In this document: in pieces, positions 22,536 through 23,240 of the stretch
Layout: every line of letters starts with the position of its first letter
How positions within the stretch are numbered: the first letter of the stretch is position 1
Position numbers and translations under genes: made by a program
Notes under the pieces: model-generated
Told to the model about the DNA's origin: nothing
The model's database searches: none
What the model saw: only the letters and a program-made list of their open reading frames with translations
Origin: a plasmid
Assembly (NCBI RefSeq): GCF_058153355.1
Contig: NZ_JBLWLY010000002.1
Reading direction: 5' to 3' (one strand)
DNA length: 64,000 nucleotides

Positions 22536-23240
22536 ATGTCAGGCTCCGTTATACACAGCCAGTCTGCAGTCATGGTACCGGCAGTGTATTCTGCCGGACA
22601 GCCTGCATCGCTGCCTGTTGCCATTGATTATCCGGCTGCGCTGGCACTCCGCCAGATGTCGATGGTTCATGATGAACTGCCAAAATACCTGCTCGCCCCT
22701 GAAGTGAGTGCCCTGCTCCATTACGTCCCGGATCTGCGCCGCAAGATGCTGCTGGCCACTCTGAAGCAGCGGACAGAAAAAGCTGCCAGGACGGCAGGAA
22801 GAATGCCCGCCGGTCAGCAGACTCACCGGCTGGTTCCGCTCTCCGACTCCTGGTACGTCAGCCAGCTGCAGACGATGGTGGCCACACTGAAAATCCCCAT
22901 GGAACGGCGTAATAAACGAACAGGCAAGAAAGCGCGGCTCTGGGAAGTGACGGACAGAACGGTCAGGACCTGGATTGGGGAGGCGGTTGCCGCCGCTGCC
23001 GCTGATGGTGTGACGTTCTCTGTCCCGGTCACGCCACATACGTTCCGCCATTCCTATGCGATGCACATGCTGTATGCCGGTATACCGCTGAAGGTCCTGC
23101 AGAGCCTGATGGGGCATAAGTCCATCAGCTCAACGGAGGTCTACACGAAGGTGTTTGCACTGGATGTGGCTGCACGGCACCGGGTGCAGTTTGCGATGCC
23201 TGAAGTGGATGCGGTAGCCATGCTGAAAGGGAATATTTAA
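22536..23240 (+). CDS. resD: ResD-like tyrosine site-specific recombinase
   Basis: 234 aa; position after ccdB as in F; C-terminal HxxR..Y region present. Confidence 0.7.
   Translation: MSGSVIHSQSAVMVPAVYSAGQPASLPVAIDYPAALALRQMSMVHDELPKYLLAPEVSALLHYVPDLRRKMLLATLKQRTEKAARTAGRMPAGQQTHRLVPLSDSWYVSQLQTMVATLKIPMERRNKRTGKKARLWEVTDRTVRTWIGEAVAAAAADGVTFSVPVTPHTFRHSYAMHMLYAGIPLKVLQSLMGHKSISSTEVYTKVFALDVAARHRVQFAMPEVDAVAMLKGNI

Follow-up and report, generated by a model that had tools for sequence, protein, structure and literature searches.

A probably defective F-type resD allele, shortened by a 96-bp in-frame deletion between short direct repeats

The tyrosine recombinase gene that follows ccdB in the window (by which we mean the whole 64,000-nucleotide stretch of plasmid DNA analysed here) is an allele of the F plasmid gene resD that is, in all likelihood, an in-frame pseudogene encoding a non-functional resolvase: a repeat-mediated deletion of 96 bp has cost the protein its Arg-I, and the deletion recurs at a hot spot. 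Judging from the sequence, the product is very probably incapable of recombination.

The deletion allele and its surroundings

The open reading frame list places an ATG-initiated ResD homologue of 234 aa in the window, the length given in the preliminary description, and its start codon abuts the TAA stop of ccdB. Gene order in this part of the window (ccdA-ccdB-resD-repE, with 557 bp of non-coding sequence between resD and repE) is that of F and of many IncFIA plasmids, so that the gene is orthologous and syntenic with its F counterpart. Upstream of ccdA lies a dyad that is the sole match in the window to AGATCCG-N13-15-CGGATC, where 0.01 matches would be expected by chance. It occupies the same relative position in 15 of 18 related loci, and the F copy (45923-45948) falls where RepFIA starts, a region described as having the rfsF sites at its beginning (PMC4398462). 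We regard the dyad as a putative rfsF. Coordinates are collected in Table 1.

Table 1. Features of the RepFIA-type maintenance module and of the resD deletion allele; positions are those of the window.
Feature	Position	Strand	Description and basis
KfrA_N protein	20866..21552	-	upstream neighbour in the mini-F-type maintenance module
Putative rfsF core	21594..21621	.	28-bp dyad AGATCCGATTT-CTGGTG-GTCACGGATCC; presumed ResD target
ccdA	22010..22228	+	72 aa, opens the ccdA-ccdB-resD unit; PF07362 E=6.9e-27, synteny with F and other IncFIA plasmids
ccdB	22230..22535	+	101 aa; PF01845 E=2.3e-32, sequence
resD deletion allele	22536..23240	+	234-aa ORF; tyrosine recombinase without box I / Arg-I
96-bp deletion junction	22751..22763	+	sole remaining repeat copy, encodes LATL; DNA alignment
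K77 codon (F K109)	22764..22766	+	putative catalytic beta-hairpin Lys, directly after the junction; position
6-bp in-frame deletion	22926..22927	+	GGACAG lost after 22926, private to the window lineage; DNA alignment
C-terminal motifs H168-x-x-R171, H194, Y203	23037..23144	+	kept; alignment to XerD/XerA HxLRH...LGH...Y, regex scan
repE	23798..24553	+	251 aa, RepFIA initiator downstream of resD; Rep3_N and Rep3_C, repE in annotated relatives
ParA-family ATPase	25400..26032	+	small, after repE; stands in place of F's sopA

The resD gene of F (NC_002483, 46866..47672) encodes a product of 268 aa (WP_000016982.1), and F ResD and thousands of relatives measure about 252-269 aa. The preliminary description had suggested that the window protein is shorter than F ResD and that a segment is missing from its N-terminal half. 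Alignment bears out both suggestions: the protein has 234 rather than 268 aa, a gap of 32 aa lies in the N-terminal half, and full-length collinearity with F ResD, the outcome that the same description had set against its own proposal, is absent. At the protein level the window allele is 96-98% identical, outside gaps, to the 268-aa products of close IncFIA alleles, and protein and DNA alignments agree that it is collinear with F resD save for two in-frame gaps. The larger (32 aa, 96 bp) corresponds to F residues 73-104 (LATLWNTGARINEALALTRGDFSLAPPYPFVQ), a placement that can equally be given as 77-108 because LATL is repeated; across alleles, the deleted residues read LATLWNTGARINEALALTRGDFSL(A/T)PPYPFVQ in the protein alignment. 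The smaller (2 aa, 6 bp) lies at about F residues 163-164 and turns GRTEKARI into GK--KARL.

How unusual is such a protein? No gap at the 32-aa or the 2-aa site is present in 35 (alignment A4) or 44 (alignment A5) other family members, so that the window protein departs from the full-length collinearity of the 252-269-aa ResD family. At the DNA level, a megablast search with the window ORF against PLSDB and complete E. coli genomes returned thousands of matches, nearly all of them in two pieces that span 795-807 bp for 693-705 bp of query, and it is therefore the window copy that is the unusual one.

Comparison with full-length alleles reveals that the 96-bp deletion falls between two copies of a direct repeat, GCTGGCCAC[A/T]CTG. 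In full-length alleles the upstream copy (GCTGGCCACACTG) and the downstream copy (GCTGGCCACTCTG) are 96 bp apart and both encode Leu-Ala-Thr-Leu; the single copy left at the window junction retains the downstream-type T at 22760.

The remainder of the window provides some context for the module. A motif scan of the 64 kb found no other tyrosine recombinases, and the only other site-specific recombinase motif belongs to a serine recombinase of 186 aa (13015-13575, + strand; Resolvase N-terminal domain, E=3.3e-48, plus HTH_7), which could supply resolution or inversion independently of ResD. There is also an IpaH-family type III secretion system effector E3 ubiquitin ligase (13672-15402, - strand; NF046045, E=3.5e-170), and positions 1935-20739 contain patchy 98% matches to the ospD3, ipaH7.8 and ospC1 regions of Shigella sonnei pINV. 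This content suggests an IS-rich, Shigella/EIEC-like virulence plasmid with a RepFIA module. Neither PLSDB nor the complete E. coli genomes contain a close full-length relative: flank coverage reaches at most about 37%, and the flank matches in these collections are mostly IS elements and Shigella pINV-like fragments. The window has two partition-type loci, a ParA/ParB pair (8645-10566, + strand) and the ParA-family ATPase beside repE. A ParM/StbA ORF (26623-27246, + strand) has just 207 aa, limited to the N-terminal domain, and an IS3-family integrase-core ORF (27145-27870, - strand) overlaps it, so parM appears to have been cut short by an IS insertion. Two IS21-type istA ORFs of 390 aa each, in the same orientation (19466-20638 and 49196-50368, both - strand) and about 30 kb apart, bracket the RepFIA module together with many other genes and might constitute a composite or recombination-prone arrangement.

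Catalytic positions and predicted fold

When full-length ResD is aligned by HMM with solved structures, its box I (LLATLWNTGARINEALALTRGDF) pairs with that of XerD (MLEVLYATGLRVSELVGLTMSDI) and likewise with box I in P. abyssi XerA and in IntI4. The box-I arginine, R148 in XerD, is the family's Arg-I, and since F R82 aligns with it, R82 is the Arg-I of ResD. Box I (TGARINE in ResD, matching the motif TGxRxxE), R82 included, lies wholly inside the 32-aa gap. This is not a variable part of the protein. When 45 diverse relatives (32-97% identity) are aligned, at least 90% of them share T79, G80, R82, E85, K109, R205, H206, G227 and Y237, among other positions, and across 35 close homologues, which come from many genera of Enterobacterales, the deleted segment is invariant or nearly so.

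The other catalytic positions are still there. Window H168, R171, H194 and Y203 correspond to F H202, R205, H228 and Y237, with the first two in an HTFR motif. K77 is likewise kept; its F counterpart K109, conserved in at least 90% of the 45 relatives, is the putative catalytic Lys, given its location before the RLVPL strand; it sits on beta-2, a strand that, going by the structure model, the deletion shortens. The preliminary description had proposed a check of the catalytic residues, and the alignments answer it residue by residue: Arg-I is gone, while Lys, His-x-x-Arg, His and Tyr are present. The window protein still matches PF00589 above the gathering score (51.9 versus 27.1 bits), with coverage of profile positions 107-168 of 172 as against 2-168 in F ResD.

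An AlphaFold2 model of full-length ResD built on a shallow alignment (homologues of at least 82% identity) had a pLDDT of 39 and was discarded; the model used instead was built on the diverse alignment (pLDDT 87.5, pTM 0.81). It has a tyrosine-recombinase fold, and Foldseek matches it to XerH, XerA, IntI4, HP1 Int and Cre, each with probability 1.0. In this model the deletion takes out the C-terminal half of helix 67-79, the turn that bears R82, helix 83-87, strand beta-1 and most of beta-2 (strand 102-106), all elements of an ordered core with pLDDT of at least 96.

In tyrosine recombinases Arg-I is needed for catalysis, and Cre, Flp, lambda Int and XerC/D all lose activity when it is substituted. 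Because both Arg-I and about 12% of the catalytic-domain core are missing, no recombination is expected of the window protein: the 234-aa product should neither cut nor reseal DNA at rfsF. The starting point was an F-like (RepFIA) ccdA-ccdB-resD-repE module with a putative rfsF upstream. An in-frame loss of 96 bp between short direct repeats, for which replication slippage or recombination at short homologies is the most likely mechanism, removed 32 catalytic-domain residues, including Arg-I of the R-K-H-R-H-Y active site. Lys, HxxR, His and the Tyr nucleophile remain, yet a product without Arg-I and part of its fold should be inactive, and the 6-bp deletion in a conserved hairpin, a later event, fits further decay. 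Replication does not depend on resD: mini-F plasmids of the delta-resD type are standard constructs that serve as laboratory tools (PMC3868542).

Recurrence of the deletion

The window allele is not confined to this plasmid. Its exact 234-aa protein is already in NCBI (EGO8354988.1, HFG3511839.1), and three other independent E. coli assemblies from different projects have the identical allele, one of them with DNA identical to the window over ccdAB-resD. The parM/IS3 arrangement described above is also found on the three other contigs with this allele (L005-L007). Further proteins show the 96-bp deletion without the 6-bp one, namely P0006 (236 aa, 9 contigs), P0013 (236 aa, 1 contig) and P0016/P0286 (237 aa), where P0286 (WP_000016984.1) is represented by 229 contigs and five closed plasmids of 34-60 kb. 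Deletion alleles are nonetheless rare: a junction-specific 101-bp query identified the 96-bp junction in 6 of 5426 complete E. coli genomes and, as 2800 of these genomes hold at least 80% of resD, this amounts to a frequency of about 0.2% of carriers.

Might the deletion be a product of sequencing or assembly, given that short repeats can misassemble locally? We give this next to no credence and reject it, as multiple independent assemblies carry the deletion: the identical allele recurs in the three assemblies from different projects, and the same deletion is present in six closed plasmids and on the 229 contigs of one lineage.

A more substantive question is whether the deletion arose once or repeatedly. 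Over 1254 aligned columns, comprising ccdAB and resD outside the deletion, the P0006 deletion allele differs at 4 positions from its nearest full-length allele, that of pVirR1, and at 58 from the window allele. The P0013 deletion allele is 19 differences from its nearest full-length allele, p100, and 56 from the window allele; the window allele itself has pAA of strain 042 as its nearest full-length relative, at 30 differences. Each deletion allele retains its own background SNPs at 2-51 bp from the junction. Moreover, the P0006 junction has the G of the upstream copy, and the downstream copy of pVirR1 has an A, which places the crossover inside CTGGCCAC. The deletion, which sits among different flanking SNPs in at least three allelic backgrounds, has thus had independent origins (at least three, probably more), and the repeat pair is a short-repeat hot spot.

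Imagine instead that the deletion arose a single time and then moved between resD alleles by homologous recombination. The alleles are clearly mosaic and the junction sequence is common to all deletion alleles, as such a history would have it. However, with background SNPs 2-51 bp away on either side, conversion tracts would have to be shorter than about 100-150 bp; the G at the P0006 junction is what a de novo crossover inside the repeat in a pVirR1 background would be expected to leave; and in P0008 another part of resD has likewise undergone an in-frame deletion between short repeats, which makes the process look general. Spread of a single event is accordingly the less likely of the two histories, and we consider it improbable.

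The p100 allele (L015) has a perfect 13/13 repeat, and pAA-type alleles have a 9+3-bp repeat. Classical F (L004, 3080-3190) and p600468 (L013), on the other hand, show synonymous differences in the downstream LATL-coding repeat, which reads GCTTGCGACCCTG. These synonymous changes remove the 9-bp perfect homology, so that F is without the deletion hot spot, and the alleles of F and p600468 should undergo the 96-bp deletion far less readily than alleles with an intact repeat. Integrity of the repeat (9-13 bp) thus depends on the state of synonymous sites: most alleles of the IncFIA type have it unbroken, whereas classical F does not. The independent recurrence of the 96-bp deletion is a small new point, a natural example of short-repeat hot spots shaping the decay of plasmid genes, and has no bearing on any open question.

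Public data also contain other, independent lesions of resD. P0008 (164 aa) has an in-frame deletion that joins VYSAGQ to QTHRLVPL, apparently between GCCGG[A/T]CAGC repeats, and pEC012-2 and p14EC047b have frameshifted resD copies (L012 1501-2306; L020 601-1409). It seems that resD often decays while ccdAB stays.

Fate of the remnant and relation to known systems

Is the shortened protein simply left to decay or has it been retained? In the window lineage resD has just two private changes, I135L and the 6-bp loss within a conserved hairpin, and both alter the protein. In the P0286 lineage, the arginine of HRLVPL, conserved in at least 90% of relatives, has changed to Q, and the putative rfsF dyad has a degenerate left arm (ACGTCCG versus AGATCCG; L017 1400-1430, L002 2070-2100). 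Together, these protein-altering changes and the degenerate dyad fit decay. The private differences of P0286 (L017) are absent from every full-length resD allele in PLSDB and comprise 9 synonymous versus 2 non-synonymous changes; between L002 and L017 there are 24 synonymous and 2 non-synonymous differences. Were the synonymous-biased changes in P0286 younger than the deletion, they would suggest that the protein is still under selection. Comparison of L010 with p100 indicates, however, that such clusters of differences stem from recombination with other alleles, and as resD alleles are recombination mosaics in which a change may be older or younger than the deletion, the synonymous bias is not evidence of function. 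The P0286 lineage also differs in its surroundings: its ccdAB-resD (resD at L017 2330-3043) adjoins NleG and M14-peptidase genes, and there is no repE downstream.

There are two ways in which the protein might nevertheless do something. It could be a naturally shorter, still active resolvase, which would square with five of six catalytic positions being kept and with a PF00589 match above the gathering threshold. We find this barely credible, as Arg-I, which at least 90% of relatives conserve, is gone along with helix 83-87, beta-1 and most of beta-2 of the model, and the 35- and 45-sequence alignments contain no full-length family member without the deleted segment. Alternatively, a catalytically dead ResD might be kept for another role, either as a transcriptional repressor that binds rfsF/oriV1 DNA or as a dominant-negative factor that keeps co-resident rfsF plasmids from resolving their multimers. 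F protein D is, reportedly, a repressor as well as a resolvase (Lane et al. 1986). The ORF is intact across all deletion lineages, the C-terminal half with its H, R, H and Y is unchanged, and P0286, on its 229 contigs, has the synonymous-biased private cluster on account of which we keep a small probability for a non-catalytic role. Several considerations argue against this role all the same. In-frame repeats force an in-frame deletion, hence an open frame needs no selection; the private changes of the window lineage alter the protein; P0286 combines R to Q with a degenerate left arm of the dyad; loss of core secondary structure in the AlphaFold2 model makes folding doubtful; and the deletion allele is rare among carriers in complete genomes. 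On balance a retained role is unlikely. A stronger version, in which the recurrent deletion repeatedly yields a dead, rfsF-binding ResD that is selected as a regulator of oriV1 or ccd or as a dominant-negative on competing rfsF plasmids, is more doubtful still.

We therefore return to a defective resolvase as the preferred reading. One observation runs against inactivation: the ORF is still open and still directly behind ccdB, and for these two reasons the deletion allele is probably expressed. Most likely, however, the window resD represents ordinary plasmid decay of a well-known gene, and we would class it as a defective representative of its family rather than as a separate variant, as it lacks both Arg-I and collinearity. 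In practical terms, working ResD/rfsF multimer resolution should not be assumed for this plasmid, and the window ORF and the P0286 lineage, labelled "tyrosine-type recombinase/integrase" or "phage integrase family protein", are probably non-functional resD remnants.

Set against known systems, the window ORF is a resD of the F type; gene and system are both known, and the allele sits in public databases under generic integrase names. It is orthologous to the resolvase of the F ResD/rfsF system, with the same order ccdA-ccdB-resD-repE and a conserved dyad upstream of ccdA, at the described location of rfsF. It differs from F ResD in being without F residues 73-104 (box I, R82) and two residues at about 163-164, while the F allele, with GCTTGCGACCCTG as its downstream repeat, has no 9-bp perfect repeat to mediate the deletion. 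P0286, P0006 and P0013 have the same 96-bp deletion as the window allele, and these and the other decayed alleles (P0008, pEC012-2 and p14EC047b) have lost an intact ResD and kept ccdAB; what sets the window allele apart from them is the extra 6-bp deletion, I135L and a different SNP background. Further afield, XerD, XerC, XerA and XerH have the catalytic-domain fold and the box I, HxxR, GH and Y motifs in common with full-length ResD. The Xer proteins have the usual core-binding domain where the ResD family has a short N-terminal region of about 50 aa instead, and all of them have the box-I arginine that the window protein is without.
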